Shown here: positions 3,001-19,382 of the stretch, one piece after another
Position numbering within the stretch: position 1 is the first letter of the stretch
Layout: each line of letters begins with the position of its first letter
Assembly (NCBI GenBank): GCA_016184305.1
Contig: JACPCX010000120.1
Coordinates: 1-19,401 of the forward strand
DNA length: 19,401 nt
Direction of reading: 5' to 3'
DNA from: Candidatus Rokuibacteriota bacterium
Lineage (GTDB): Bacteria; Methylomirabilota; Methylomirabilia; Rokubacteriales; CSP1-6
Position numbers and translations under genes: made by a program
Notes under the pieces: model-generated
What the model was told of the DNA's origin: nothing
The model's database searches: none
What the model saw: the letters and a program-made list of their open reading frames with translations, nothing else

Positions 3001-4366
3001 TCAGCTCCAGGACGTGATGGCGCTCGCGGTATCCGAGCCAGCGCTGGCGCGGGCGCATGTGCTCCGGGCCGCCGCGCGTCAGTTCGTCGAGGGCGACGTC
3101 CAGCACTGGTGGCACCCGCCGGCCGGCCGGGGCGTTCGGACGCGCGTCTCCGACGATCTGCTCTGGCTGCCGTACATGGTCAGCCGGTATCTCGAAGTCA
3201 CCGGCGATGGAGACCTCCTCGACGAGATGGTTCCCTTCCTCGAGGGGCCGCTGCTCGCGGCGGGGCAGCCCGAGTCGTACTTCGAGCCACGCGTGTCCGG
3301 ACCGCGCGGCACGCTGTTCGAGCACTGCGCCCGCGCCCTCGACCACAGCCTGCCGGTCGGGAGCCATGGCCTCCCGCTCATGGGCACGGGGGACTGGAAC
3401 GACGGGATGAACCAGGTGGGTGCCGGCGGGAAGGGCGAGAGCGTCTGGCTCGGCTGGTTCCTCCACGCGGTGCTCTCCGAATGGGCGAGGCTGGCCGATG
3501 TCCGCGGGGAGGGCCGGCGCGCCGAGACATGGCGGCGCCACGTTGACGCGCTGAAAGAATCGCTCGAACGCGAGGCCTGGGACGGTGACTGGTATCGGCG
3601 CGCCTACTTCGATGACGGGACGCCGCTGGGCTCCGCGGCCAACGAAGCCTGCCGCATCGATTCGATCGCGCAGTCGTGGAGCGTGCTCTCGGGAGCCGCC
3701 GACGCGGCTCGGGGGCGGCGGGCCATGGCGGCGGTCGAGGCGCACCTCGTGCGTCGAGAGGATGGCCTCGTGTTGGTGCTCGCGCCGCCGTTCGATGCGA
3801 CGCTGCTGGAGCCCGGCTACATCAAGGGCTATCTGCCAGGCGTCCGCGAGAATGGCGGGCAGTACACGCATGCGGCGATCTGGTCGGTCATGGCCTTCGC
3901 GGCGCTCGGTGATGGCGACAAGGCCGGCGAGCTGTTCGCGCTCGTGAACCCCATCAATCACACCCGCACGCGGGCCGGCGTCGACCGCTACAAGGTCGAG
4001 CCCTACGTCGTCGCGGCCGACGTGTACGGCGCGGCTCCGCACGTCGGCCGCGGGGGCTGGACCTGGTACACGGGGTCAGCGGGGTGGATGTATCGGACCG
4101 GGCTCGAATGGATACTCGGGTTCCGGCTGCGAGGCACCCGCCTCGTCGTCGACCCCTGTATCCCGCGTACGTGGGAAGGCTTCACGGTGGCGTTCCGCTA
4201 TCACTCCGCGCGGTACGATATCGTCGTCGAGAACCCCCGCGGCGTGACCCGGGGAGTGTCGTCCGTGGCGGTCGATGGGGTGCGTCTCGACGGCCTTGAC
4301 GGCCTGGGGGGCATCCCGCTCGCTGACGACCGCAAGACCCACCGGGTGCGAATCATCCTCGGCTGA
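2..4366 (+). CDS. ndvB: Cyclic beta-1,2-glucan synthase/phosphorylase (NdvB/ChvB/Cgs family), 5'-partial. The window holds the end of the glucoamylase-like transglycosylase region, two GH94 N-terminal beta-sandwich repeats and the GH94 catalytic domain
   Basis: The frame is open from base 2 (GYNVRDLEMTYQYSNFGVPGLGL), so the gene starts upstream. Motifs: APYAT, YGFYEALDYT, YMAHHQGM, LLSNGRY..MITAAGSGYS, TPAPWINVVAN, SRENQLTPWSNDPV, FYQAGGAYGFRDQLQD, GDWNDGMN, RENGGQYTH, GRGGWTWYTGSAGW. Confidence 0.93.
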   Translation, partial: GYNVRDLEMTYQYSNFGVPGLGLRRGLSEDVVIAPYATALAAMVDPAAAVRNFRRLAEAGASGAYGFYEALDYTPPRLPEGARVAVVRTYMAHHQGMLLVAIANALHGGAMRARFHGEPMVQATELLLQERTPRDVAVARPHAEEVQAAADVREFIPPVVRRFTSPHGSMPRSHLLSNGRYAVMITAAGSGYSRWRDLAITRWREDVTRDAEGTYVFLRDADSGESWSAGYQPRGAEPDSYDVVFSEDRATIARRDGAIATTLEVIVSPEDDAEVRRVSLTNLGTRTREIELTSYAEVVLALPATDAAHPAFSNLFVHTSFAPELDTLLATRRPRSRDERQIWLAHVVVVEGETVGGVEWETDRARFLGRGRGIRTPRAVIGGQPLSSTVGAVLDPIVSLRRRVRLPPGTTVRVTFSTLVAPSREEAVDLADKYRDPATFDRAATLAWTQAQVQLHHLGVERDEAHLFQSLANHVLFSDRALRPSAGVLTRHTGSPAALWAHGISGDIPIVLVRIDEPEDVGIVRQLLRAHEYWRMKQLPVDLVIVNERAPSYIQDLQALLETLVRTSQSAAAHEGHGPHGSVFILRADRMAAPERDVLLAAARVVLLSRRGTLAEQVIHAQRPDNAPVSPQRRWTAAKPLADVPLPRLDLEFSNGVGGFAADGREYVTMLGEGQWTPAPWINVVANPAFGFQVSESGSGYTWSINSRENQLTPWSNDPVSDPSGEAIYVRDEESGEVWGPTALPIRSATGAYIIRHGQGYSRFERVSHGISLELLQFVPLDDPIKVSRLTLTNQSARARKLSVTAYVEWVLGVSRSAAAPFVVTEIDSQTGAMLARNTWSRDFGARVAFADLGGAQTAWTGDRGEFFGRNGTPELPAALERGGRLSGRVGAGLDPCGALQATIELPAGGRAEVVFFLGEAATREEAGELIGRYRTADLAAVLRAVAERWDDVLGTVQVTTPDRSMDLLLNRWLLYQTLACRVWARSAFYQAGGAYGFRDQLQDVMALAVSEPALARAHVLRAAARQFVEGDVQHWWHPPAGRGVRTRVSDDLLWLPYMVSRYLEVTGDGDLLDEMVPFLEGPLLAAGQPESYFEPRVSGPRGTLFEHCARALDHSLPVGSHGLPLMGTGDWNDGMNQVGAGGKGESVWLGWFLHAVLSEWARLADVRGEGRRAETWRRHVDALKESLEREAWDGDWYRRAYFDDGTPLGSAANEACRIDSIAQSWSVLSGAADAARGRRAMAAVEAHLVRREDGLVLVLAPPFDATLLEPGYIKGYLPGVRENGGQYTHAAIWSVMAFAALGDGDKAGELFALVNPINHTRTRAGVDRYKVEPYVVAADVYGAAPHVGRGGWTWYTGSAGWMYRTGLEWILGFRLRGTRLVVDPCIPRTWEGFTVAFRYHSARYDIVVENPRGVTRGVSSVAVDGVRLDGLDGLGGIPLADDRKTHRVRIILG

Positions 4367-4502
4367 GCGGGCTCTCAGGAGCCCCGGCGGAACGAGGTGG
4401 CCTGAAACGACGGATCACACATGATATCCCGATCCACATCGCCGCGATCAACACGCACATGTGTCAGCTGGCCGGGGAAGCGTGCGACGGGATCCGGCCG
4501 CG

Positions 4503-6026
4503 TCAGTCGGCCTTCCTGTACTGTTCCTGCAGCACCCGCTTGAGGGTCTTCCCCGCCACGTTCCGCGGGAAATCGTCGACGATCATCACGTCACTCACGC
4601 GCTGGAACTTCGCCCCCACCCGCGCGTTGACCCATGCCACCAGCTCGCTGGCCGACACCGCAGCCGGTGAGCGAAGCACGACCGCGGCCACCGGGGTCTC
4701 CCCCCACCTCGGGTCCTGCACGCCGAACACCGCGGTCTCCCGCACCGCCGGGTGCTGGACGACGACCTCCTCGATGTCGCGCGGATAGACGTTCACGCCG
4801 CCCGAGATGATCATGTCCTTCTTGCGGTCCACGAGGTAGAGATAGCCGTCCTCGTCCACGTAGCCGAGATCGCCGGAGTGGAGCCAGCCACCGACGACGG
4901 CCTTGGCGGTCAGGTCGGGGCGCTTGTAGTAGCCGGCCATCATCATCGGCCCGCGGCCGCAGATCTCGCCGACCTGGCCGGGTGGCACGTCGCGGCCGCC
5001 GTCGTCGAGGATGCGCATCTCGTAGAACGCCAGCGGGACGCCCACGGAGCCCATCTTGCGGACGGCGTCGGTCTTGTCGAGCACGGTCACGAAGCCCTCG
5101 GTGAGGCCGTAAAGCTCGTAGAAGCGCCCGGGCAACGCGTCGTTCAAGCGCTGCTTGTGCTCGACGTGCAGGGGCGCGCCGACGGTCAGCAGCATCTCGA
5201 GCGACTCGAGGCGCTGTGGCGCGAAGCCGGGGCTGTTGAGCACCCCGACGATCTGCGAGGGCACCATGACAATGTGCGTGACACGGCTCCGCTCGATCTC
5301 CGCGATGACCGCGTCGGCGTCGAAGGCCTTGTGCAGGATGTAGGTGGCGCCCAGCATGAGCCACGGCATGAGGTCGATGAAGGCGCCGTTGAAGACGAGC
5401 GAGCCCGCGTGCAGGACCACGCTCTCCGGCGTCATGCGGCACGTGGAGGCGAGGAGCGTGCAGTACCCCGCGCGTACGTCGTGCGTGTGCACGATGCCCT
5501 TGGGCTCGCCGGTGGTGCCGCTCGAGTAGATGATATTGTACGGGTCGCTGCCGGTGATGCTCGCGTCGGGCGGCTCACTCTCCGGGGCCTCTGCCACCAG
5601 CGTCGCGTACGAGCGGAATCCCGGCTGCTCGCCGTCCACCAGGACGTACCGCTCGTCGCGGATCGCCGGAAGCTCGCCGCGCAGGCCGTCGAGCGTGCCG
5701 GCGAACGCGCGGGTGGTCACGACCATGACCGCGTCGGAGTTCTGGAGCAGCGACACGAGCCCGCGCTCCTGGAGCAGCGGGCTCAGCGGCACGGCGACGA
5801 CGCCGGTCTTGGTCGCGGCCAGGTAGATCTCGAGCTGCTCGAGGCGGTTGGGCAGCACCGTGGCGAGGGTGTCGCCCTTGCGCAGCCCCGCCGCGAGGAG
5901 CGCGTTGGCCAGGCGGTTCACGCGCGCGTCGAGCTGGCGGAAGGTCAGGCGGTCGTCGCCGCACACCAGGGCGAGGTGGTCGGGGCGGCAGCGGGCGTGC
6001 TTCGGGAGCAGAGTTCCGAGGTTCAT
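4503..6026 (-). CDS. Class I adenylate-forming enzyme (acyl-CoA synthetase / AMP-binding protein), substrate unknown
   Basis: 507 aa with P-loop [45 protein letters not shown] and C-terminal [10 protein letters not shown]. Confidence 0.93.
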
Positions 6027-6034
6027 GCCCCGGG

Positions 6035-6040
6035 ATTATA
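6035..6040 (-). promoter_or_regulatory. Consensus -10 box (TATAAT) 8 nt upstream of the acyl-CoA synthetase ATG; probable leaderless or near-leaderless promoter
   Basis: Minus strand reads GCTATAATCCCGGGGC-ATG, with no Shine-Dalgarno sequence between the box and the start codon. Confidence 0.6.
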
Positions 6041-6216
6041 GCGGAGGATCATGGGCGCCATACGCCGAATGCAGTGGACTGGGCGCACCCGGCATTCTAT
6101 CCTGCTCCGCGTCGGGAGTCGATTCCGGGGGCGCGTGCGCCTCGGCTGGCGGTGGACCCGTGGCTGGAGGGTGGGACGCGCGGCGCAGGATCAGCGCGCG
6201 AGAGGAGGGGGAACCG

Positions 6217-7476
6217 ATGGATCGGGCCGGCATCGAGCTGAATGGCACGCGGTACCGCTGGCCGTCGCGCCCGGTCGTCGTGGTATGCATCGACGGGGGC
6301 GACCCGGCCTACTTCGAGCGGGGCGTGGCGGACGGCATCGTCCCCAACGTGGAGCGGTTCATGACGACCGGATTCGGCGCCGTCGCCGACGGCGACGTCC
6401 CGAGCTTCACCTGCCCGAACAACATGTCGATCGCCACCGGCAGTCCTCCGGCGGTCCACGGCATCTCCGGCAATTTCTACCTCGACCGGGACACCGGCGA
6501 GGCGGTTGTCATGACCGGCCCGGAGCTCATCCGCTCGCGGACCGTCATGGCCGAGTTCTCGCGCCACGGCGCCACGGTCGTGTCCATCACGGCCAAGGAC
6601 AAGCTGCGCCAGCAGCTCGGCAAGGACATGGATCTCGCCGGGGGAAGCGTCAACTTCTCGGCGGAATTCGCGGGGCGGTGCACGCTGGAGGAGACGGGCA
6701 TCGAGAACGCGCTCGCGCTGGTCGGCCTGCCCCAGCCCCACATGTACTCGCCCGAGCTGTCCCTGTTCGTGCTCGAGGCGGGAATCACGCTCCTGGAGCA
6801 GCGGCGGCCTGACATCCTGTACCTGTCGCTCACGGACTACATCCAGCACAAGTACGCGCCGGGCGAGAGCGAGGCCGATCGCTACTACCGGAACCTCGAT
6901 GCCACGTTCGGACGGCTCGACGCGCTCGGGGCCGTGGTGGCGCTGACGGCCGACCACGGGATGAGCGACAAGTCCCACCCGGACGGCTCGCCGAAGGTCA
7001 TCTGGCTCCAGGACCTCCTCGACGCGCGGTTCGGCAAGGGCTCGAGCACGGTGATCTGCCCCATCACCGACCGCTTCGTCGCCCACCACGGCGCGCTCGG
7101 TGGGTTCGTGCGCGTCTACTGTCACGGCAGCCTGGCGCCGGAGGATGTGATGCGCATCGTCCGGGCCCTGCCCGGAGTGGAAGCCGTATACGACAAGCCG
7201 ACCGCCGCCCGGGTCTTCGAGCTTCCCCTGGACCGAGAGGGCGACGTGGTGGTCGTGGGCCGGACCGACACGTGCATCGGCGCGGCCGAGGCCGACCACG
7301 ACCTGTCCGGCCTCAAGGGCCATCGTCTGCGTACCCACGGCGGCATCTCCGAGCGCAAGGTCCCGTTCATCATCAACCGCCCGCTCCGTCCGGAGTACGC
7401 CGCAACCGCCGCGGCTGGCACCTTGAGGAGCTATCAGATCTTCGACTTCGCGATCAACGGCGTCGATCCGGCCTGA
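6217..7476 (+). CDS. phnA: Phosphonoacetate hydrolase (alkaline phosphatase superfamily), 419 aa
   Basis: SD-like GAGGAGGGG before ATG 6217. Motifs: VVVVCIDGGDP, PSFTCPNNMSIATG..P.VHGISGN, TAKDKLR, YLSLTDYIQHKYAPG, TADHGM, ICPITD..V.HHGALG, LRTHGG. The ORF-track start at 5848 overlaps the opposite-strand gene and is rejected. Confidence 0.9.
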   Translation: MDRAGIELNGTRYRWPSRPVVVVCIDGGDPAYFERGVADGIVPNVERFMTTGFGAVADGDVPSFTCPNNMSIATGSPPAVHGISGNFYLDRDTGEAVVMTGPELIRSRTVMAEFSRHGATVVSITAKDKLRQQLGKDMDLAGGSVNFSAEFAGRCTLEETGIENALALVGLPQPHMYSPELSLFVLEAGITLLEQRRPDILYLSLTDYIQHKYAPGESEADRYYRNLDATFGRLDALGAVVALTADHGMSDKSHPDGSPKVIWLQDLLDARFGKGSSTVICPITDRFVAHHGALGGFVRVYCHGSLAPEDVMRIVRALPGVEAVYDKPTAARVFELPLDREGDVVVVGRTDTCIGAAEADHDLSGLKGHRLRTHGGISERKVPFIINRPLRPEYAATAAAGTLRSYQIFDFAINGVDPA

Positions 7477-7566
7477 TCCGGCACAGGAGCAAGCCATGGG
7501 ACGCGTCGGGCGGGCAGCGATCGGCCTGGCCGACAGCGTGGGGATCCAGGGACTCGGCCTGCCGGG

Positions 7567-7788
7567 TCACTCCGAGCGGGGCGCCATCCGCTCTTGAATC
7601 TCGGCGGCGAAGAGATCGAGCGTGAGGGGACAGGGAGGCTCGTTCGCGTCGATGTACTGGCAATCCGATTCGCTGCACTGGACGAAGAGCTTGCCACTGG
7701 CGCCCAGCGACCTCCGCCGCCGCAGGGCAATGGATACCGTCTCGGAGATGACGGTGCAGCGGAATGACTTGGAAGGTGTACGGCTCAC
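7567..7788 (-). CDS. Small Cys-containing hypothetical protein (73 aa), possible metal binder
   Basis: Strong SD GGAGGGAG just before GTG 7788. Product is MSRTPSKSFRCTVISETV...FVQCSESDCQYIDANEPPCPLTLDLF with four Cys. A TATACT -10-like hexamer lies upstream on the minus strand at 7883-7888. Confidence 0.6.
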   Translation of the reverse strand: MSRTPSKSFRCTVISETVSIALRRRRSLGASGKLFVQCSESDCQYIDANEPPCPLTLDLFAAEIQERMAPRSE

Positions 7789-7945
7789 CGATCTCCCTCC
7801 CGGATCGAGGGGCTGCACGCGGAGACGAGAGAGGGTAACGGGACCGCCACGGCCCGCCAGTCTCTTCCACGAAGAGGCTTTCAGTATACAGGACCCGCCC
7901 GTCCCTCATGTCACTCACTCGCGCCTACCCCGGACGAGGATGTCG

Positions 7946-8008
7946 ATGCTCGCTGCCGTCGCGACGGTCAAGGTCCAGCCCGGGACGGAGATGGGGAAGC
8001 GTTTCTGA
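7946..8008 (+). pseudogene. Possible remnant of an ABM/putative quinol monooxygenase-like gene (N-terminal strand only)
   Basis: GAGGA SD 5 nt before ATG. The peptide MLAAVATVKVQPGTE resembles the typical ABM N-terminus (hydrophobic strand, then K-V-x-P-G) but stops after 20 codons. Confidence 0.3.
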
Positions 8009-8038
8009 GCCGTGCACCACTCACCAGGAGGATGCCCG

Positions 8039-8338
8039 ATGATCGCCGACCGCTATTCCAAGGCCGTGCTGACCGTCATCGCCGTGGCCCTCGCCGTGAT
8101 CACCGTTCGCCCATGGCTTCCCGAGTCCGGATGGCTCGAGGCGATGCGCCCGGGCCCGGCGCAGGCCCAGACCTCCGCCGCCAAGTACGAGGTCACCGTG
8201 CCCAGGGCCTGGGGCAAGTACGTCTCCTACAGCAACAATAATCTCCTGCTGGAGGCGCCGGACGGGATGCGCATCGTCGACGTCGAGGGGAAACCCCCCG
8301 AGTACCCGAAGGTGAAGGTGTTCATCCGCTGGCAGTAG
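8039..8338 (+). CDS. Hypothetical secreted or membrane-anchored protein (99 aa)
   Basis: SD AGGAGG before ATG 8039. N-terminal DRYSKAVLTVIAVALAVITVRP hydrophobic helix, an AQA-Q signal-peptidase-like site, then a short beta-rich domain. Confidence 0.75.
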   Translation: MIADRYSKAVLTVIAVALAVITVRPWLPESGWLEAMRPGPAQAQTSAAKYEVTVPRAWGKYVSYSNNNLLLEAPDGMRIVDVEGKPPEYPKVKVFIRWQ

Positions 8339-8380
8339 CGCCGTGCCGGCTCGGCACCCACGACGGACGAGGAGGCGCCA

Positions 8381-8695
8381 ATGCTCTACATGGTCGGCAG
8401 TTTCGACTTCAACCATGAGCGCTTCACCCTGGACGAGGCGGAGCGACACTACCGCGAGTACCACGTGCCGCTGGCCCGGCGCCTGCCCGGTCTCCGCCGC
8501 TATGTGATCGGCCCCCTCGTCGCGACGCGGACCGTCCCCGCCGAGCGCCATCGCGCCGCCATCCTCGGCTTCGACAGCCTGGAGGCCCTCCGGGCGGCCT
8601 ACGGGTCGCCGGTGGGCCAGGAGCTCCGGGTGGACGAGGGCAACCTGCTCGCCCAGCCGCGAGCCATCCTTCTGGCGGGGGAGGAGATCCTGTGA
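8381..8695 (+). CDS. EthD-family protein (dimeric alpha/beta barrel)
   Basis: SD GAGGAGG. The pattern HYREYHVPLARRLPGLRRY...FDSLEALRAAYGSPVGQEL..D is typical of EthD-family proteins. Confidence 0.85.
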   Translation: MLYMVGSFDFNHERFTLDEAERHYREYHVPLARRLPGLRRYVIGPLVATRTVPAERHRAAILGFDSLEALRAAYGSPVGQELRVDEGNLLAQPRAILLAGEEIL

Positions 8696-8746
8696 CGCAC
8701 TAGTGCGTTCGCCTCATTGTGAGCCCTCCACTCGGTCCTCTATCGT
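8695..8746 (+). promoter_or_regulatory. Putative sigma70-type promoter of the ior/kor operon with an upstream perfect 14-bp palindrome
   Basis: ACGCACTAGTGCGT (8695-8708) is its own reverse complement. TTGTGA (8717-8722), 18 bp, TATCGT (8741-8746). Confidence 0.4.
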
Positions 8747-8810
8747 GGGGAGCTAGTTGTCATATACGCCTGCTCGCCGTCAGGCCAGGCAGTCAGGACG
8801 AGGGGAGCGC

Positions 8811-10658
8811 ATGGCCGCACCCAAGGCATCGGCATCACCTGGACCCGCGACGGCCAAGTCCCCGGCGACGAGCCGGCCCCTCCTGCTCTCGGGCAACGAG
8901 GCCATCGCCCGGGGCGCCCGGGAGGCGGGCGTGCGCGTGGCGGCCGGGTATCCGGGGACGCCCAGCACCGAGATCCTCGAGACGCTTGTGCGGCTGGACC
9001 CGGGACGGCAGGTTTACGTCGAGTGGGCGACCAACGAGAAGGTCGCCCTGGATGTGGCGCTGGGCGCGGCCATGGGCGGGGCGCGGGCGCTGTGCGCGAT
9101 GAAGCACGTGGGGCTCAATGTCGCCGCCGACACCTTCATGACAGCGGCCTACACGGGCGCCCGCGCCGGGCTGGTCATCGTCACCGCGGACGACCCCGGC
9201 ATCCACTCCTCTCAGAACGAGCAGGACAACCGCCTGTTCGCCCGCTTCGCCGGCGTCCCGCTGCTGGAGCCCGCCGACAGCCAGGAGGCGCGCGACTTCA
9301 CCGTCGAGGCCTTCGATCTGGCCGAGCGCTTCGACGTGCCCGTGCTCATCCGCACCACCACGCGGGTGTCGCACGCGCGCGGCGTCGTCACGCCGGGCCA
9401 CCTCCAGGTCGCCCCCGTGCTCGGCTTCGAGCGCGCCCCCGGGAAGTTCGTCATGCTGCCGTCCAACGCGCGCCCGCGCCACCGGGCGCTGCTGGAGCGC
9501 CTCGAGGCCATGGCGCGGGAGGTGGAGGCCAGTCCGCTCAATCGCATCGAGTGGCGCGACCGGGCGCTGGGCGTGGTGACGAGCGGGATCACGTATCACT
9601 ACGTGCGCGAGGTCTTCCCGGAGGCGAGCGTCCTCAAGCTCGGCTGGACCCACCCGCTGCCGCAGGGCCTCTCGCGCGAGTTCGCGGCCGGTGTCGGCCG
9701 CCTCGTCGTGGTCGAGGAGCTGGAGCCCTTCCTCGAGGAGCAGCTCCGCGCCCTCGGCCTCGCCGTCGAGGGCAAGGCCTGGTTCCCGCGGGACGGCGAG
9801 CTCGCCCCGGAGACGGTGCGGCGCGGCTTCGAGCGCGCGGGGTGCCTTCCGGCGAGCGAGAGCAGGCCGCTCTCCTCCGGTCAGACGGCCACGCGGCCGC
9901 CTGTCCTGTGTCCGGGCTGCCCCCACGTCGCGCCGTTCGTGGCGCTTCGCCAGCTGGGCGCGGTGGTGGCCGGCGACATCGGCTGCTACACGCTCGCCGC
10001 CACCGAGCCGCTGCTGGCCATGGACTCCACCGTGGCCATGGGCTCGAGCATCGGGATGGCCATCGGCCTGGCGCGCTCGGGCGGCGCCACCGGGCCTGTC
10101 GTCGCCGCCATCGGCGACTCCACGTTCCTCCACGCGGGACTCCCCGCGCTCGCCGACGCCGCCTACAACGGGACGCGGGTGACTGTCCTCATCCTCGACA
10201 ACGCGACGACCGCCATGACCGGCGGCCAGGCCCACCCCGCCACCGGGACGACGATCCGCGGCGACGCGGCCTCCGTGGTGGACCTGCCGGCGGTCTGCCG
10301 GGCGCTCGGCGTTGCCTCCGTCCGCGTGGTCGATCCCTACGATCTCGCGGCCACGCATCTGGCGCTCGAGCAGGCCGTCGCCTCGCCCGGCGTGTCCGTG
10401 GTCATCACGAACCGCCCCTGCGTCGAGGCGCCCGCCAAGGTGCGGGACCATCCCTTCCACGTCATCGCCGAGCGCTGCACCGCCTGCCAGGCCTGCATGA
10501 ACCTCGGCTGCCCGTCCATCACCTGGAGCGAGGGGTGGCACGAGGGGCGGCGGAAGGTCCAGATCGACGTCGGCACGTGCACGGGGTGCACCGTCTGCGC
10601 GCAGGTCTGCCTCATGGAGGCGATGGTCCCGGTGCCCGGATGGAGCCCGAAGCGATGA
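8811..10658 (+). CDS. iorA: Indolepyruvate:ferredoxin oxidoreductase alpha subunit
   Basis: SD GAGGGGAG before ATG 8811. Motifs: LLSGNEAIARGA, YPGTPSTEI, NEKVA, MKHVGLNVAAD, DDPGIHSSQNEQDNR, RPPVLCPGCPH, GDIGCY, TPP motif IGDSTF..LDNATTAMTGGQ, and C-terminal 2x[4Fe-4S] (CTACQACMNLGCP; CTGCTVCAQVC). Confidence 0.93.
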   Translation: MAAPKASASPGPATAKSPATSRPLLLSGNEAIARGAREAGVRVAAGYPGTPSTEILETLVRLDPGRQVYVEWATNEKVALDVALGAAMGGARALCAMKHVGLNVAADTFMTAAYTGARAGLVIVTADDPGIHSSQNEQDNRLFARFAGVPLLEPADSQEARDFTVEAFDLAERFDVPVLIRTTTRVSHARGVVTPGHLQVAPVLGFERAPGKFVMLPSNARPRHRALLERLEAMAREVEASPLNRIEWRDRALGVVTSGITYHYVREVFPEASVLKLGWTHPLPQGLSREFAAGVGRLVVVEELEPFLEEQLRALGLAVEGKAWFPRDGELAPETVRRGFERAGCLPASESRPLSSGQTATRPPVLCPGCPHVAPFVALRQLGAVVAGDIGCYTLAATEPLLAMDSTVAMGSSIGMAIGLARSGGATGPVVAAIGDSTFLHAGLPALADAAYNGTRVTVLILDNATTAMTGGQAHPATGTTIRGDAASVVDLPAVCRALGVASVRVVDPYDLAATHLALEQAVASPGVSVVITNRPCVEAPAKVRDHPFHVIAERCTACQACMNLGCPSITWSEGWHEGRRKVQIDVGTCTGCTVCAQVCLMEAMVPVPGWSPKR

Positions 10659-11518
10659 TGCAGGATGGCGGCAGCCTCCTGCTCATCGGCGTGGGCGGGC
10701 AGGGGGTCGTGCTGGCCAGCGCCATCGTGGCGGATGCCGCCCTGCGGGCCGGCTGGGACGTGAAGCAGAGCGAGGTGCACGGCATGTCGCAGCGGGGCGG
10801 CGTCGTCTCCTCGCATCTGCGCTTCGGCCGCCGCGTGCACTCGCCGCTCATCGAGGCGGGACAGGCCGACGCGGTGGTGGCGATGGAGTGGAACGAGGGC
10901 CTCCGCGCCCTGCCGTATCTCCGCCGGGGCGGCCCGCTCGTCATCAACCTGCAGCGCACGGTGCCGCCGGGCGCCTGCCGCGATCGGATCGGGGGCGCCT
11001 CGGGCTACCCCGCGCTGGCCCTCGACGCCCTGGTCACCGAGGTGGGCGATGTGCGGGCCTGCGACGCCATGGAGATCGCCGCCCGGCTCGGGAGCCCCAA
11101 GGCCCAGAACAGCGTGCTGCTTGGCGTGCTGGCGCCGCTCCTGCCGTTTCCGGACGCGGCGTGGCTCGGCTCCCTGGACGATCACGTGCCGCGCGCCACG
11201 GTCACCGCCAACGAGAAGGCGTTCGAGGCGGGGCGCGCGCTCGAGTTCCCCGCCGAGACGCTCGCTCAGGCCGCCCGCGCCGCCGCGGCGACGAACGGCC
11301 ACGTCCACGGGCGCGGCCGGCCGGCGCGACTCGAGATCACCGCGGCATGGTGCAAGGGCCGAGCCTGCGAGATCTGCGTGCGCGTCTGCCCCGAGCGGTG
11401 CCTCGGGATCAACGGGATCGACAAGGTTCGGGTCACGCGCGCCGAGGCCTGCACCGGGTGCCGTCTCTGCGAATTGCTCTGCCCGGACTTCGCCATTGTC
11501 GTCCACGAGGAGGCCTGA
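10655..11518 (+). CDS. iorB: Indolepyruvate:ferredoxin oxidoreductase beta subunit fused to a C-terminal KorD-like 2x[4Fe-4S] ferredoxin (287 aa)
   Basis: ATGA overlap with the iorA stop. GVGGQGVVLAS...DVKQSEVHGMSQRGGVVSSHLRFG..VHSPLI is IorB-like. After an Ala-rich linker comes WCKGRACEICVRVCP...CTGCRLCELLCPDFAI, a KorD/OorD-type ferredoxin. Confidence 0.88.
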   Translation: MMQDGGSLLLIGVGGQGVVLASAIVADAALRAGWDVKQSEVHGMSQRGGVVSSHLRFGRRVHSPLIEAGQADAVVAMEWNEGLRALPYLRRGGPLVINLQRTVPPGACRDRIGGASGYPALALDALVTEVGDVRACDAMEIAARLGSPKAQNSVLLGVLAPLLPFPDAAWLGSLDDHVPRATVTANEKAFEAGRALEFPAETLAQAARAAAATNGHVHGRGRPARLEITAAWCKGRACEICVRVCPERCLGINGIDKVRVTRAEACTGCRLCELLCPDFAIVVHEEA

Positions 11519-11519
11519 G

Positions 11520-12671
11520 GTGACGGCGCGGGTCGAGCTGGTCCAGGGCAACCAGGGTTGCGCGCGGGCCGCGCTCGACGCGGGGTGCCGCTTCTATGCC
11601 GGCTACCCGATCACGCCCTCCTCGGAGATCGCGGAAGTCCTGGCGGCGGCGCTCCCCGGGCTGGGCGGCGTGTTCCTCCAGATGGAGGACGAGATCGCCT
11701 CCATGGGGGCGGTGCTGGGGGCCTCCCTCGCCGGACGCAAGGCGATGACGGCCTCCAGCGGACCCGGCTTCTCGCTCATGCAGGAGCATATCGGCTACGC
11801 GGCCTTCACCGAGATCCCCTGCGTCATCGTGAACGTGATGCGCGGTGGCCCGAGCACGGGGCTGCCCACGAGCCCGGCCCAGGGCGATGTGATGCAGGCG
11901 CGCTGGGGCACGCACGGCGATCACCCGATCATCGTGCTGGTGCCCGCCTCGGTCGCCGAGGTGTACGGGCTCACCGTGCAGGCCTTCACCCTGGCCGAGC
12001 GCTACCGGACGCCGGTCGTGCTTCTCTACGACGAGGTGATCGGGCATGTGCGCGAGCGCGTGACGCTGCCCGATGCGGCGGCGCTGCCGCTCATCGAGCG
12101 GCCGCGCCCCGCAGGCCCGCCGGCGGGCTACCGTCCCTACGCCGCCACGCAGACGGGCGTGCCCCCCATGGCCGACTTCGGCTCGGGCTACCGCTTCCAC
12201 GTGACCGGGCTTGCCCACGACGAGCGTGGCTATCCGACTCAGGACGCTGCCGTCGTCGCGCGCCTGCACGCGCGCCTGCACGCCAAGCTCGAGCGCGGGC
12301 GGGACGACATCGTCTCCTGGGAGGCGGCAGGCCTGGACGATGCCGAGACGGTTGTCGTGGCCTTCGGCATCGCGGCACGGGCGGCACGGCAGGCCATGAC
12401 CCTGGCGCGGGCGCGCGGCGAGCGGGTCGGCGTCTTCCGGCCACGGACGCTCTGGCCTTTCCCCGACCGCGAGCTGAAGGACATTGCCGGTCGGGCGCGG
12501 CGGATCGTCGTGGCGGAGATGAACATGGGGCAGATGCTCCTGGAGGTCGAGCGCTGCGTCGCCGGGCAGGCGCCCGTGGTGCCGTGCCTGCGGGCGGACG
12601 GCCTGCCGCTGACTCCGGAGGACGTGCTGGCACGGCTCGAGGCGCCGGCGCGGGCGGGAGCGATCCGATGA
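11520..12671 (+). CDS. korA: 2-oxoacid (2-oxoglutarate-type):ferredoxin oxidoreductase alpha subunit (383 aa)
   Basis: GTG at 11520 with SD GAGGAGG inside the end of the previous gene. Motifs: QGNQGCARAA..AGCRFYAGYPITPSSEI, QMEDEIAS, ASSGPGFSLMQE, RGGPSTGLPT, QARWGTHGDHP, HVTGLAHDERG, LWPFP, EMNMGQ. Confidence 0.9.
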   Translation: MTARVELVQGNQGCARAALDAGCRFYAGYPITPSSEIAEVLAAALPGLGGVFLQMEDEIASMGAVLGASLAGRKAMTASSGPGFSLMQEHIGYAAFTEIPCVIVNVMRGGPSTGLPTSPAQGDVMQARWGTHGDHPIIVLVPASVAEVYGLTVQAFTLAERYRTPVVLLYDEVIGHVRERVTLPDAAALPLIERPRPAGPPAGYRPYAATQTGVPPMADFGSGYRFHVTGLAHDERGYPTQDAAVVARLHARLHAKLERGRDDIVSWEAAGLDDAETVVVAFGIAARAARQAMTLARARGERVGVFRPRTLWPFPDRELKDIAGRARRIVVAEMNMGQMLLEVERCVAGQAPVVPCLRADGLPLTPEDVLARLEAPARAGAIR

Positions 12672-14158
12672 CCACGGCGGCCGCGAGCCAGATCGACTAC
12701 CGCGAGTACCTGCGGCTCGACATGATGCCGCACATCCTCTGTCCGGGCTGCGGACACGGGATCGTGCTGAAGGCGATCCTGCGTGCCATCCACCGGCTCG
12801 GGCTCCGGCGCGAGGAGGTGGCCTTCGTCTCCGGCATCGGCTGCTCGAGCCGCATCGTCGGCTACGTGGACTTCTGCACGCTGCACACGACCCACGGCCG
12901 GCCGCTCACCTTCGCCACGGGGCTCAAGCTCGCGCGGCCGGCTCTGCACGTCATCGTCATCACTGGCGACGGCGACGGGCTCGCCATCGGAGGCAACCAC
13001 CTGATCCACGCGGCCCGGCGCAACGTGGACCTCACCTGCCTCCTCCTGAACAACGCCATCTATGGCATGACGGGCGGGCAGGGGGCGCCCACGACGCCCG
13101 AGGGGGCGCGCAGCAGCATCACGCCCGGCGGGGCCATCGAGCCCGCCTTCGACGCCTGCCGGCTCGCCCTCGGCGCCGGCGCCTCCTTCGTCGCGCGGGG
13201 GCTCACGGCCCAGCCGCTCCAGCTCGACGACCTGATCGTGCAGGCGATGGAGCACAAGGGCTTCTCGTTCCTCGAGGTGCTCAGCGATTGCCCCGAGTTC
13301 TTCGGCCGCTACAACGACCTCGGGCGCGGACCGGAGATGCTCCAGGCGCAGCGGAGCCACGTCGAGTGGATCGGCGCCGCGCTCGCGGAGAAGACGTACG
13401 TCCCCGGGCTCGGATCCGATACGCCGTCCCACGGGGCGGCTCCGGCCTTCAACGCCGGAGTCCTCCACCGCGAGGCGCGCCCGGATCTCGGAGCACAGCT
13501 CGCTCAGCGGGCGACGGCGGCGCCGACTGCGCGGGCGTGGCACCCCGAACCGGCTGCCACGCTCCCGGGCGCGGTGACCGGGACAGTCTCCAACGGGATC
13601 GTCGCCGCCGGGCCCATGAGAATCCGGCTGGCGGGCGCGGGCGGCCAGGGCATCGTGCTGGCGGGGCTGCTCCTGGCCGAGGCCGCCGTGGCCGCAGGCC
13701 GCAACGCAACCCACGCCCAGGCCTATGGACCGGAGTCCCGAGGGGGAGCGAGCAAGGCGGAGGTCATCATCAGCGACGGGGAGATCGAGTTCCCCTGCGC
13801 CGACCGCGTGGATGCGCTGGTGGCGCTGACCCGGGAAGCGTACGACCGCTACGTGTCACTGCTCGAGCCTGGCGGCACGCTCGTCGTGGACCGCGACCAG
13901 GTGCCCGTGGAGTCGACGAATGGGTTCGCCTGCCACGCGCTCCCCATCGCTGCCACGGCCCAGCAGGCTCTCGGCACCACGATGGGGGCGAATCTCGTGG
14001 CGCTGGGCGCCATCGTCGGGCTCACCGCCGCGGTGCCCGTGGAGGCCGTGGAGCGCGCCGTCGCCGCCCGCCGCCCCGGCGGCAGCGCCGAGCGCGCCCT
14101 GACCGCATTCCGCGCCGGCCTCGCCCTGGGGTCAGGTCTTGCATTACGACATCGGTAG
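12668..14158 (+). CDS. korB: 2-oxoacid:ferredoxin oxidoreductase beta subunit fused to gamma subunit (KorB::KorC, 496 aa)
   Basis: ATGA overlap with korA. Beta motifs: PHILCPGCGHG, SGIGCSSR, LHTTHGR, GDGDGLAIGGNH, NNAIYGMTGGQ. After a Pro/Ala/Thr linker, the gamma domain from 13616 reads MRIRLAGAGGQG...QAYGPESRGGASKAEVIISD. Confidence 0.9.
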   Translation: MTTAAASQIDYREYLRLDMMPHILCPGCGHGIVLKAILRAIHRLGLRREEVAFVSGIGCSSRIVGYVDFCTLHTTHGRPLTFATGLKLARPALHVIVITGDGDGLAIGGNHLIHAARRNVDLTCLLLNNAIYGMTGGQGAPTTPEGARSSITPGGAIEPAFDACRLALGAGASFVARGLTAQPLQLDDLIVQAMEHKGFSFLEVLSDCPEFFGRYNDLGRGPEMLQAQRSHVEWIGAALAEKTYVPGLGSDTPSHGAAPAFNAGVLHREARPDLGAQLAQRATAAPTARAWHPEPAATLPGAVTGTVSNGIVAAGPMRIRLAGAGGQGIVLAGLLLAEAAVAAGRNATHAQAYGPESRGGASKAEVIISDGEIEFPCADRVDALVALTREAYDRYVSLLEPGGTLVVDRDQVPVESTNGFACHALPIAATAQQALGTTMGANLVALGAIVGLTAAVPVEAVERAVAARRPGGSAERALTAFRAGLALGSGLALRHR

Positions 14159-14294
14159 GGTACGGTCTTGCATTGTGATACGGGTCAGGGGCCTGATCAT
14201 CGTGCACCGCTGGGAGCGCAACGGCGGCGGGGCTGGGGCCACGTGTCGGATTGCAAGACCTGACCCCTAGCGCTCTACGCGCCGGCCTCGCCCT
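14111..14294 (+). repeat. 17-bp direct repeat flanking the inverted-repeat element
   Basis: CGCGCCGGCCTCGCCCT occurs at 14111-14127 and again at 14278-14294. Confidence 0.9.
14128..14267. mobile_element. 140-bp MITE/REP-like element with 24-bp imperfect terminal inverted repeats
   Basis: GGGGTCAGGTCTTGCATTACGACA (14128-14151) matches the reverse complement of 14244-14267 (GGGGTCAGGTCTTGCAATCCGACA) at 22/24, with the outer 16 bp perfect. An internal degenerate copy GGGTACGGTCTTGCATT lies at 14158-14174. No transposase is present. Confidence 0.7.
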
Positions 14295-14314
14295 CGTCGC
14301 CAAGCGCTGAGCGG

Positions 14315-15397
14315 CTAGCTCACCCAGTCGCAGATGAAGACGTCGAGGTCGCGGGGGGCCGCGGCGCCTCGATTGCTGCAGAAGACGAGCTGGCTGCCGT
14401 CGCGGGAGAACATCGGAAAGGACGCGAAGGACTCGGTCCAGGTGAGCCGCTCGAGCCCCCCGCCGTCGCGGTCGATCAGGTAGAGAGCGAAGCTCCGGCC
14501 CGACGGGTCGTGCAGGTTCGACGAGAACACGACCTTCCGGGAGTCCGGGTGCATGAACGGCGAGAAGTTCGCGGCGCCGTTGCGCGTGACCTGGGTGAGC
14601 CCGCTGCCGTCGGCTCCCATGGAGAAGATCTCGAGCCGCCGCGGCCGCACCAGGCTCTGGCCCAGGAGCGACCGGTACTCGTCGAGATCGGCCCCCGCTG
14701 CAGGCCGGGCGGCGCGGAAGACGACGTACCGCCCGTCCCAGGAGAAGAAGGGCCCGCCGTCGTAGCCGATCCCGTCCGTCAGCCGGCGCAGGTTCCCGCC
14801 GTCGGCGTCCATCGCGTAGAGGTCGAGATCGCCGTCCCTGAGCGAGGTGAAGACGATGCGCTTGCCGTCCGGCGAGACGGCGCCCTCGGCGTCGTAGCCG
14901 TCGTTGTCGGTGAGGCGGGTCAGCGCGCCGCTGGCGAGATCGGCGGCGAAGATCTCGTAGGAGCGGTAGATGGGCCAGACATAGCCCTGGGAGCGGTCGG
15001 GCGGCGTCGGGCAGTCGGCGCCGCCCAGATGGGTCGAGGCGTAGATGATGCGCCGGCCGTCGGGAAAGAAGAAGGCGCAGGTGGTGCGCCCCTTGCCCGT
15101 CGAGACCAGGCGGACATCCCCGCCGTCCGCGCGCATGGTGAAGATCTGATCGCAGCCGAAGGGCGGCCTCGTGGACTGGAACACCAGGCGCGTGCCCGTC
15201 CAGTCGAAATAGGCCTCGGCGTTCTGGCCGCCGAATGTGAGCTGCCGGAGGTTCGCGAGCCGGCGCTCGCGGGGATCGGCGGCCGGTCCCGCGGCCCGCG
15301 CCTTCCTGAGGCGGGCCTGGATGGACTCCGCGAGCGCCCAGGCGGAGCCCGTGAGACCGAGGCGCAGCATGGTCCTGCGGTCGAGGCGCCATGCCAT
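14315..15397 (-). CDS. TolB-like beta-propeller (PD40-repeat) protein with a putative Tat signal (360 aa)
   Basis: ATG 15397 overlaps the peptidase stop (TGATG). N-terminal LDRRTML..G..GSAWALA. Repeats: RQLTFGGQNAEAYF, GRTTCAFF.PDG, GYDAEGAVSPDGKRIVFTS.RDGDLDLY, GYDGGPFFS, FPMFSRDG. Confidence 0.88.
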   Translation of the reverse strand: MAWRLDRRTMLRLGLTGSAWALAESIQARLRKARAAGPAADPRERRLANLRQLTFGGQNAEAYFDWTGTRLVFQSTRPPFGCDQIFTMRADGGDVRLVSTGKGRTTCAFFFPDGRRIIYASTHLGGADCPTPPDRSQGYVWPIYRSYEIFAADLASGALTRLTDNDGYDAEGAVSPDGKRIVFTSLRDGDLDLYAMDADGGNLRRLTDGIGYDGGPFFSWDGRYVVFRAARPAAGADLDEYRSLLGQSLVRPRRLEIFSMGADGSGLTQVTRNGAANFSPFMHPDSRKVVFSSNLHDPSGRSFALYLIDRDGGGLERLTWTESFASFPMFSRDGSQLVFCSNRGAAAPRDLDVFICDWVS

Positions 15398-18541: not shown

Positions 18542-19039
18542 GTGGCGGTCCCTGATGTGCTCATCGTAGGTGGAGGCGTGATCGGGTGCGCGGTCGCCTA
18601 TGAACTGGCCCGGCACGGTGTGAAGGTTCGCCTCCTGGAGGGTGCGGGCCTCTGCTCCGGCGCCTCCGGGGCCAACGGGGCGTTGGTCTGGCCGCAGGCG
18701 ATGGCTCGTGGAATCGGCCTCACGTTCTCGCTGGCGAACTTCCGCCTCTTCCCGGCGCTCGGCGAGGAGCTCGGGGTGGACCTCGAGTATCGCCGCACCG
18801 GGGGCCTTGTCGCCGTCGGGGCCGACCAGTGGGAGCGCATGGTGGCGTACGCGGCCGCCCAGCGGGAGATCGGGCTTCCGGCCGAGTTGCTCGACGGCGC
18901 CGCGGCGCGCGCCTACATCACCATCGCCTGGTGGCTCACCACGTTCCCCGGCGCGACCATCATGCTCACGGTGCTGGGGATCAACTTCATGGGGGACTGG
19001 CTCCGGGACCTGTTCGACCCGCGGCTGGAGTCACTCTGA
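18542..19039 (+). pseudogene. Chimeric ORF: N-terminal ~122 aa of an FAD-dependent DAO-family oxidoreductase fused in frame to the C-terminal ~43 aa of a DppC/OppC-type ABC permease
   Basis: SD GGAGG. DVLIVGGGVIGCAVAYELA...GASGANG..YRRTGGL is a DAO/glycine oxidase N-terminus. From ~18908, RAYITIAWWLTTFPG..IMLTVLGINFMGDWLRDLFDPR is the canonical DppC C-terminus. Confidence 0.85.
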
Positions 19040-19061
19040 TCGCATACTCGAGGAGGCACGC

Positions 19062-19382
19062 ATGAGGACGTGGTCCGGTCGCATCGCCGCCGGCGTCGAG
19101 AGGGGGAGCCCGTTCACCTTCACGCTGGACGGCGAGCCCGTGGAGGCGTATCCGGGAGAAACCGTGGCTGGGGCCTTGCTGGCAAGCGGGCGCCGCATCG
19201 CGCGGCGGTCCCCGCGGCGCGGGGAGCCCCGGGGGCTCTTCTGCGCGATGGGCATCTGCCATGACTGTCGCATGCTGGTGGACGGGGAGCCGAATGTCAG
19301 GACATGCCTGGCGCCCGCCCGCCCCGGCATGGTGGTCGAGACGCAGATCGGGCTCGGGCCCGTCCGGGAGGTGGCGCAGTGA
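19062..19382 (+). CDS. [2Fe-2S]-binding subunit (HcnA / sarcosine oxidase alpha N-terminal / opine oxidase-like), 106 aa
   Basis: SD AGGAGG. FTLDGEPVEAYPGETVAGALLA...PRGLFCAMGICHDCRMLVDGEPNVRTC gives C-x4-C-x2-C-x12-C. Confidence 0.88.
   Translation: MRTWSGRIAAGVERGSPFTFTLDGEPVEAYPGETVAGALLASGRRIARRSPRRGEPRGLFCAMGICHDCRMLVDGEPNVRTCLAPARPGMVVETQIGLGPVREVAQ

Follow-up and report, generated by a model that had tools for sequence, protein, structure and literature searches.

2-Oxoacid:ferredoxin oxidoreductases (OFORs) are normally regarded as stand-alone enzymes that reach the rest of the cell through free ferredoxin. We analysed a stretch of 19,401 nucleotides from a Candidatus Rokuibacteriota bacterium (positions 1 to 19,401 of contig JACPCX010000120.1, assembly GCA_016184305.1; hereafter the window), in which four co-directional genes at 8811-14158, a region of ~73% GC, encode the subunits of two such enzymes and one gene, iorB::korD, appears to serve both. 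Described systems resemble each part of this locus. As in IorAB, the indolepyruvate:ferredoxin oxidoreductase (IOR) of Pyrococcus and Thermococcus, a one-chain IorA here combines thiamine pyrophosphate (TPP) domains with a two-cluster ferredoxin and is followed directly by a translationally coupled iorB gene; unlike there, the IorB appears to carry another enzyme's delta subunit at its C-terminus, and no IorB model scores it above cut-off. For T. kodakarensis, PMC12016516 gives the IOR composition as alpha2beta2. The second enzyme recalls Helicobacter pylori OorDABC, described in the available portion of PMC12307629 as a 2-oxoglutarate:acceptor oxidoreductase (PDB 8YS5): gene order D-A-B-C and the four domains are the same, and the H. 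pylori enzyme is the best solved relative of both our ferredoxin and our KorB part, but here delta is continuous with IorB, and in this lineage beta and gamma also form one chain.

For a link between two OFORs, the nearest precedent within the sources at hand is the Thermococcus pair of pyruvate and 2-oxoisovalerate enzymes (POR and VOR), which in T. kodakarensis have a single gamma subunit (TK1978) in common and, when sulfur is absent, purify together as a hetero-complex (PMC12016516). There, as here, the genes of two OFORs are interwoven in a single cluster, with a link at the subunit level; that pair, however, is archaeal and shares its gamma subunit with no covalent link, whereas the bacterial case is a covalent join between a gamma-type subunit of one enzyme and the delta subunit of the other. 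A domain III followed by a two-cluster domain V likewise occurs in the gamma-delta chain of oxalate oxidoreductase (5c4i, 5exd) and in one-chain pyruvate:ferredoxin oxidoreductase (PFOR; 1b0p, 6cin), but in those enzymes both domains serve one core, whereas orthology here points to two. None of the OFOR subunit fusions catalogued in the accessible part of PMC13285125 joins two enzymes, and a search of the full-text literature, including passages of a 2026 PFOR review (PMC13768988), returned no description of an IorB-KorD fusion. The parts are ordinary; their covalent join, of an IOR to an OorDABC-type OFOR, is conserved and apparently new to the literature. R. rubrum Rru_A1977/78 was considered as a characterised member and set aside on its published description as a plain IorAB pair.

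We read the four genes of the window as this lineage's version of a conserved module of five genes, iorA, iorB::korD, korA, korB, korC, in which two intact enzymes are tethered to each other by the iorB::korD product, and we put the probability of this reading at roughly 0.6. The first enzyme would be of IOR type, with IorA and the IorB half of the fusion as its subunits; the second, of OorDABC type, would combine the KorD half with KorA, KorB and KorC; and a flexible linker of ~35 residues would join the gamma-type subunit of the first to the ferredoxin (delta) subunit of the second. An original prediction, made from the letters of the DNA, had described four open reading frames (ORFs) coupled by ATGA, 1-bp and ATGA junctions, and an ORF listing with inspection of the junctions agrees: the iorA stop and the iorB::korD ATG overlap as ATGA, the GTG start of korA lies 1 bp past the iorB::korD TGA with GAGGAGG upstream of it, and korA and korB::korC again overlap as ATGA.

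Domain searches were run against Pfam and NCBIfam. The first gene, iorA (8811..10658, + strand, as are all four; 615 aa), encodes an IOR alpha subunit whose single chain unites domains I, II, VI and V; its product matches TIGR03336 (IOR_alpha) over residues 25-605 with 698.2 bits, above the cut-off of 650.9, and carries POR_N, TPP_enzyme_C and Fer4 in Pfam. It has the TPP-binding motif, the four proximal-cluster cysteines and all eight cysteines of the two-cluster domain, and in 35 IorA sequences from loci that share the iorB::korD fusion (fused loci, below) C367, C370, C392 and C537, the GDST...N464 motif and eight cysteines at 556-600 are invariant. The second gene, iorB::korD (10655-11518, 287 aa), opens with an IorB-like, gamma-type domain III (residues 1-196, 10655..11242), in which Pfam places a POR domain at residues 14-194. 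The top NCBIfam matches of this half are all IorB models (E down to 2.6e-57), although the best of them, NF005322, stays under its cut-off (193.8 bits against 237), and its identity to the IorB of plain iorAB loci is 40-50%. Rather than a separate IorB of ~190-200 aa scoring above its model's cut-off, the locus thus has a 287-aa chain with an extra ferredoxin. A sequence search of our PDB copy yielded no solved IOR structure.

That ferredoxin occupies residues 232-287 plus the stop (11348..11518), with the 2x[4Fe-4S] domain itself at about residues 232-285, and is of KorD/OorD type. Its best named models are OorD (39.7 bits, cut-off 93) and OGOR_delta (37.5, cut-off 125), and its closest solved relative is H. 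pylori OorD (8ys5_D, E 4.2e-8). Seven of its cysteines (C233, C238, C241, C245, C266, C269, C276) are invariant in 73 sequences and the eighth, C272, is conserved in at least 90% of them. When an alignment of KorA was scanned for related loci, ~67 of the 80 loci recovered showed a small separate korD followed by korA, korB and korC, and the ferredoxin half is 37-57% identical to such separate korD ORFs. Because non-fused relatives have a separate korD in this position, we assign the ferredoxin to the second enzyme as its delta subunit: an eight-cysteine domain does precede the alpha subunit, fused to IorB instead of standing free.

The remaining subunits follow in the same order. The korA gene (11520..12671, 383 aa) encodes the alpha subunit (domains I and II) of the OorDABC-type enzyme, with POR_N and PFOR_II in Pfam and 566 bits against NF006412 (2-oxoacid:acceptor oxidoreductase alpha), whose cut-off is 411. 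The last gene, korB::korC (12668-14158, 496 aa), begins with KorB (residues 1-252, 12668..13423), the beta subunit with TPP and proximal-cluster domain VI, where Pfam finds TPP_enzyme_C at 58-204 and the closest solved structure is OorB (8ys5_C, 1.7e-71). Its TPP motif and four proximal-cluster cysteines are present, and C25, C28, C59, C208 and the GDGD...NN motif are invariant in 40 KorB sequences from fused loci, while the beta models stay under their cut-offs (NF007207, 286 against 364; TIGR02177, 207.9 against 261.9). A KorB C-terminal tail and linker (residues 253-316, 13424..13615), with no family model match in Pfam or NCBIfam, leads to KorC (residues 317-496 plus the stop, 13616..14158), a gamma subunit of domain III type that carries a POR domain at 325-485 and is closest among solved structures to the Geobacter gamma subunit 3on3_A (6.8e-42). 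Gamma therefore does come after beta, here within the same chain, and this part is 34-59% identical to the KorC that follows korB in the ~67 non-fused korDABC loci.

What the second enzyme acts on is less clear than its subunit plan. The original prediction had called it KOR, a name that its scores do not establish: every 2-oxoglutarate-specific NCBIfam model falls below its cut-off, NF007206 at 428 against 579 and NF006275 (OorC) at 84 against 216, besides NF007207 above. Because of this, 'KOR' and the kor gene names are for us a working label and not a finding, and 2-oxoglutarate is the leading guess at the substrate. The paper on the H. pylori Oor enzyme, which deals with a drug, gave no substrate-binding residues for comparison. 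As far as motifs show, both enzymes are likely to be intact, the TPP motifs and cluster cysteines being kept in IorA, in KorB and in the iorB::korD product.

The argument depends on each half of the iorB::korD product serving a different core. We modelled a complex of IorA, the KorC domain and residues 1-198 of the fusion product, the last being the scored partner; it was seated on IorA with an interface score (ipSAE) of 0.75 against 0.00 for the best of three controls, and all confident contacts lay between IorA and the IorB half although the KorC domain was present as a competitor. At least 85% of contacts agreed between runs and the confidence (predicted local distance difference test, pLDDT) of the partner was at least 86. 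In calibration, 116 of 157 solved complexes and 2 of 215 mismatched pairs reach the mark used, figures that apply with the caveat that our model used its own alignments and three chains, unlike the calibration set; the predicted seating may also reflect mere likeness, since solved OFOR complexes resemble the pair of IorA and the IorB half.

A different pairing would make the iorB::korD product a gamma-delta subunit wholly of the KorA/KorB enzyme and leave the trailing KorC to serve IorA, in which case the two enzymes would have no covalent link in most phyla. Domain III followed by V in one chain is indeed the natural order inside a single OFOR, the gene order would be gamma-delta-alpha-beta as in porCDAB, the fusion product gives whole-length fold matches to the oxalate oxidoreductase chains 5exd_B and 5c4i_E and to PFOR and a weak match to NF045790 (OxalOxreddelta), and its linker, 26-43 aa across the family, is about as long as PFOR domain IV. 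Yet the IorB half matches IorB models at the E-value given above against 1.5e-7 for PorC_KorC, and is 40-50% identical to the IorB of loci whose sole possible partner is IorA; KorC already has its place after korB in the non-fused korDABC loci; the complex model chose IorA with the KorC domain on offer; and the fold matches, taken over both domains, are at ~15 Å root-mean-square deviation (rmsd). The two halves are orthologous to IorB and KorD of different enzymes, not to a gamma-delta chain of one core, and by orthology and the complex model we judge this pairing highly unlikely.

The C-terminal domain could also be an extra carrier belonging to the IOR, with KorA, KorB and KorC working without a delta subunit, as in the two-subunit OFORs found among our structural matches (6n2n, 5b46); that the ferredoxin falls under the cut-offs of all KorD and OorD models would suit this. 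Its position and sequence, however, match the separate korD before korA in non-fused relatives, including the locus we call L049, its best solved relative is an OorD, and IorA already has an invariant two-cluster domain of its own, so that we hold an IOR-only carrier to be very improbable. Orthology of both halves, gene order, the IorA clade described below and the complex model together uphold the proposal that one polypeptide carries an IOR and a KOR-type subunit; judged from sequence, the iorB::korD chain is most simply placed in two enzymes, as an IOR subunit and an OorDABC-type subunit.

We then asked how widely the fusion occurs. Among 5.8 billion proteins, at least 120 near-full-length relatives of the iorB::korD product were found, named at source just 'indolepyruvate ferredoxin oxidoreductase beta subunit' or '2-oxoacid:acceptor oxidoreductase family protein'; generic public names such as 'IorB' conceal the fusion architecture. 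Across 1.84 billion cluster representatives, the full-length fusion appears in only a handful of 50%-identity clusters, and plain IorB clusters of ~195 aa are many. Scanning an alignment of such proteins against one genome per prokaryotic species gave 80 loci, on which we placed the six domains of the window. At 41 of these, iorB and the ferredoxin lie in one open frame, with korA directly after the fusion in 40 (the remaining contig, L030, ends within the ferredoxin) and korB and korC next in 38 (three contigs are cut short before this). Plain iorA-iorB makes up the remaining 39 loci: none has the ferredoxin, and just one, L049, has a korA-like gene (>=40% identity). By record titles, the fused loci belong to Pseudomonadota (29; alpha, beta and gamma), Actinomycetota (3, plus 2 from Microthrix), Rokubacteria (2) and Sysuimicrobiota, Dormiibacterota and Acidobacteriota (1 each), with 2 unassigned; cultured carriers include Rhodopseudomonas palustris BisB18, R. 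telluris, Blastochloris sulfoviridis DSM 729 and Rhodovulum tesquicola. The search for the same order and fusion in other genomes, which the original prediction had proposed, thus found both kept at 40 of 41 fused loci, and the outcome that would have told against it, an arrangement confined to this assembly, did not materialise: the fusion is widespread and spans several phyla.

Missing stops or frameshifts could in principle make six genes appear as four. The source is a metagenome-assembled genome (MAG) of 239 contigs and 88.8% completeness, and at ~73% GC long spurious open frames are common. But the same fusions recur in other genomes of the genus and in the complete genome of cultured R. 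palustris BisB18, and independent sequencing runs span junctions and linkers gap-free. The full-length iorB::korD gene is present in 4 of 4 genomes of the genus (89-100% identity) and in 8 of 201 sampled genomes of the phylum, from three genera, and was not found in 37 other relatives searched with the same query, the last two tallies both taking in genome G012; the korB::korC fusion also occurs in G001, G002, G003, L011 and L014. Seventeen public DNA runs from groundwater and soil contain at least half of the region's sampled words. Contigs from two independent runs cross the three junctions and both linkers without a gap, and an independent soil contig covers 13325-13780, across the korB::korC linker, likewise gap-free. 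We therefore reject an assembly or gene-calling artefact. Short contigs from two RNA libraries, 97-100% alike, map to all four genes and offer a weak hint of expression; they could be DNA carry-over, and are too few and short to speak to co-transcription.

Frames are less tidy in some other MAGs. At L023, L026, L038, L043 and L051, the iorA or korA matches are broken over at least two frames, which could stem from sequencing error or from genuine frameshifts; the most broken of them, L051, is also alone among the Pseudomonadota loci in having korB and korC share a frame.

The second fusion of the window has a different history. Of the 38 fused loci that reach them, korB and korC share one frame at only 3, two in Rokubacteria and one in a frame-broken long-read MAG, and korC is a separate gene at 35. 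Beta::gamma fusions are a common architecture elsewhere, with dozens of full-length homologues at >65% identity and many more at 41-54%. The korB::korC fusion thus arose independently, as a trait of the lineage laid over an older module, and is no part of the conserved design.

Trees of the alpha subunits bear on the history of the module. An IorA tree of 71 rows (LG+G4, quick search) unites the fused loci, as 36 fused rows and L030, in a single clade with a Shimodaira-Hasegawa-like approximate likelihood-ratio test (SH-aLRT) support of 100; its sister is L047/L049. On the KorA tree (110 rows), the 38 KorA of fused loci group on one side with locus L140 at a cost of 2 changes, which none of 500 shuffles equalled, but the deep branch uniting them is poorly supported (below). 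Both trees divide into a Pseudomonadota subclade and a mixed subclade of Actinomycetota, Dormiibacterota, Sysuimicrobiota and Rokubacteria, a pattern that fits a module inherited as a unit with some transfer between phyla; the Acidobacteriota locus L031 groups with the mixed subclade by its KorA and beside Pseudomonadota by its IorA. A single origin of the iorB::korD fusion is probable.

The locus L049, from an uncultured anaerobe, matches the window in its six protein families and their order but has iorB and korD as separate genes, and its IorA is sister to the fused clade. Over 619-9075 it carries iorA, iorB (192 aa), three ORFs (374, 360 and 308 aa), korD (108 aa), korA, korB and korC, with 3.5 kb between iorB and korD; the three ORFs we take, by eye, to be two acyl (butyrate-type) kinases and a phosphate acyltransferase. 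Its KorA lies on a long branch. L140, a short alphaproteobacterial contig, has at 1400-4380 a korD-like ORF, a korA 63% identical to that of the window and korB::korC in one frame, with no ior match; its KorA adjoins that of the fused loci in the tree.

Plain iorAB loci come mostly from Thermodesulfobacteriota, Nitrospirota, Zixiibacteriota, Bacillota and similar groups, and the fused form mostly from Pseudomonadota, Actinomycetota, Rokubacteria, Dormiibacterota and Acidobacteriota. The former lineages are anaerobes and the latter mostly aerobic or phototrophic, which suggests that the division between fused and plain may follow oxygen lifestyle.

Gene neighbourhoods speak chiefly to the first enzyme. 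At 10 of 43 fused loci, a PaaK-like arylacetate-CoA ligase (AMP-binding and AMP-binding_C_2) is adjacent. In R. palustris BisB18 (L028, NC_007925.1, 751003-763824), the module sits inside a phenylacetate (paa) catabolic cluster: paaD, paaC, paaA and the repressor gene paaX lie upstream on the other strand, and the PaaK-like ligase and a gene for a pyridoxal phosphate-dependent enzyme downstream. According to PMC13285125, an IOR with an AMP-forming ligase as neighbour may work towards biosynthesis. This context supports arylpyruvate and arylacetyl-CoA chemistry for the IOR side, which would interconvert the two, and is not firm on the second enzyme. Elsewhere, Liv-type ATP-binding cassette transporter genes occur near the module at 7 loci; the Actinomycetota neighbours include genes for HMGL-like, CoA-transferase III, enoyl-CoA hydratase, short-chain dehydrogenase/reductase and thiolase proteins, and an HMGL-like neighbour is found at the Sysuimicrobiota locus L012 as well.

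How closely the two enzymes are joined turns on the segment between the halves of the iorB::korD product (residues 197-231, 11243..11347), a variable linker rich in A, P, R and E with a median length of 35 aa in 73 family members. An AlphaFold2 model of the chain (pLDDT 89.5, predicted template modelling score 0.75) places a helix at 200-211 and drops below a pLDDT of 50 at 214-219; it predicts no defined orientation of the two domains, which makes the fold search uninformative on the real assembly. The original prediction had envisaged a defined super-complex with a shared Fe-S wire; the variable linker, the lack of specific insertions and the absence of a fixed domain orientation lend that part of it no support. 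What is shown is a flexible tether, and a fixed super-complex would be conjecture.

Several observations weigh against a functional tether as well. Column identity in the linker is 0.42, against 0.62-0.83 in the domains; the model fits oxalate oxidoreductase and PFOR chains over both domains only at the ~15 Å rmsd noted above; no insertions or deletions specific to fused loci were found in IorA or KorA, and residues that discriminate the fused-locus forms number 5 in IorA and 0 in KorA. Because fusion-specific indels are lacking and discriminating residues few, we see no sign of a dedicated interface between the enzymes, and that they touch or trade electrons is conjecture. The branch uniting the KorA of fused loci has a support of just 47. 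The PaaK-like ligase is as frequent at plain iorAB loci (13 of 39) and there is none in the window itself; as a neighbour of plain loci too, it supports IOR chemistry and not coupling.

These points favour a rival history, in which a stop was lost between adjacent operons and the fusion, harmless or useful in fixing stoichiometry, does nothing beyond co-expression, each enzyme working independently via free ferredoxin. Besides the variable, low-complexity linker and the absent interface signatures, korB::korC fusions arise readily and look neutral, and the unfused L049 holds iorAB and korDABC in one cluster of amino-acid fermentation type, so that a shared pathway could suffice. Against this, the clade's 41 loci, drawn from six or more named phyla, include no reversion to split genes, and on the IorA tree the clade is both deep and firmly supported. 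A neutral fusion would be expected to split occasionally; korB::korC, by contrast, is confined to a few lineages within the same module. We regard co-expression as the sole role as a serious but doubtful possibility. A covalent OFOR-OFOR link that is exceptionless in one deep clade and several phyla suggests instead a selected two-enzyme unit.

What the tethered pair might do can be sketched in outline. One iorB::korD chain would mean that the enzymes are made in a fixed 1:1 ratio and held within tens of ångströms of each other. Were both halves docked on their cores simultaneously, the electron-exit modules, domain V of IorA and KorD, would by linker length be confined to the same range, and this closeness could let the two TPP sites exchange or pool electrons. 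At its most ambitious, the pair would be a ferredoxin-independent 'oxoacid exchange' enzyme, moving electrons between two TPP sites without a free low-potential carrier, an idea that we consider improbable. Electrons released by oxidative decarboxylation at one site would travel by way of domain V of IorA and the tethered KorD and drive reductive carboxylation at the second site, for a net exchange of 2-oxoacid-1 + acyl-CoA-2 <-> acyl-CoA-1 + 2-oxoacid-2. In one possible version, phenylpyruvate + succinyl-CoA -> phenylacetyl-CoA + 2-oxoglutarate, the amino acceptor for phenylalanine transamination would be regenerated from an end product of the paa pathway; in the reverse version, arylacetates could be salvaged into aromatic amino acids. 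Exchange, if true, would explain why the fused form sits mostly in aerobic or phototrophic lineages and plain iorAB in anaerobes. If electrons do pass between the sites, 2-oxoacid oxidation could power CO2-fixing reductive carboxylation without a low-potential ferredoxin pool, which would be relevant to amino-acid salvage, to aromatic catabolism (the paa pathway, Rhodopseudomonas) and to engineered C-C bond formation from CO2. The idea is testable in cultured, tractable carriers such as R. palustris BisB18, B. sulfoviridis DSM 729 and R. tesquicola.

Around the module, an EthD-domain gene lies upstream of iorA across a 116-bp gap, and a convergent PD40-repeat gene downstream of korB::korC. A promoter and terminator scan of 8300-14400 gave none, a result that is weakly informative at 73% GC. 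A repeat finder located a 140-bp element (14128..14267, no strand assigned) with 24-nt terminal inverted repeats inside the 3' end of korB::korC, where it provides the final 9 codons and the stop (...AGLAL|GSGLALRHR*); the corresponding C-termini of relatives read ...AGLALVAPS* or ...AGLALVP*, and G003 has a shorter version of the element. Eight more full-length copies at 79-87% identity, and many arm-only matches, occur in the same genome. The element is bordered by a 24-nt direct repeat (14104-14127 and 14271-14294, 88% alike), and many contigs from other runs join across its variable middle.

Two further features lie towards the ends of the window. At 18542-19382, a 165-aa ORF corresponds to just the N-terminal third of a DAO-type FAD oxidoreductase and is overlapped in another frame by a 246-aa ORF with a Fer2_4 2Fe-2S domain at its end; either a frameshift or a miscall of two genes through ORF choice could account for this. 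At 2-4366, with its 5' end open, is a very large gene of at least 1454 aa, whose product combines glycoside hydrolase family 94 (GH94) supersandwich and catalytic domains with an N-terminal part resembling glucoamylase and, at the C-terminus, a GH65 domain.

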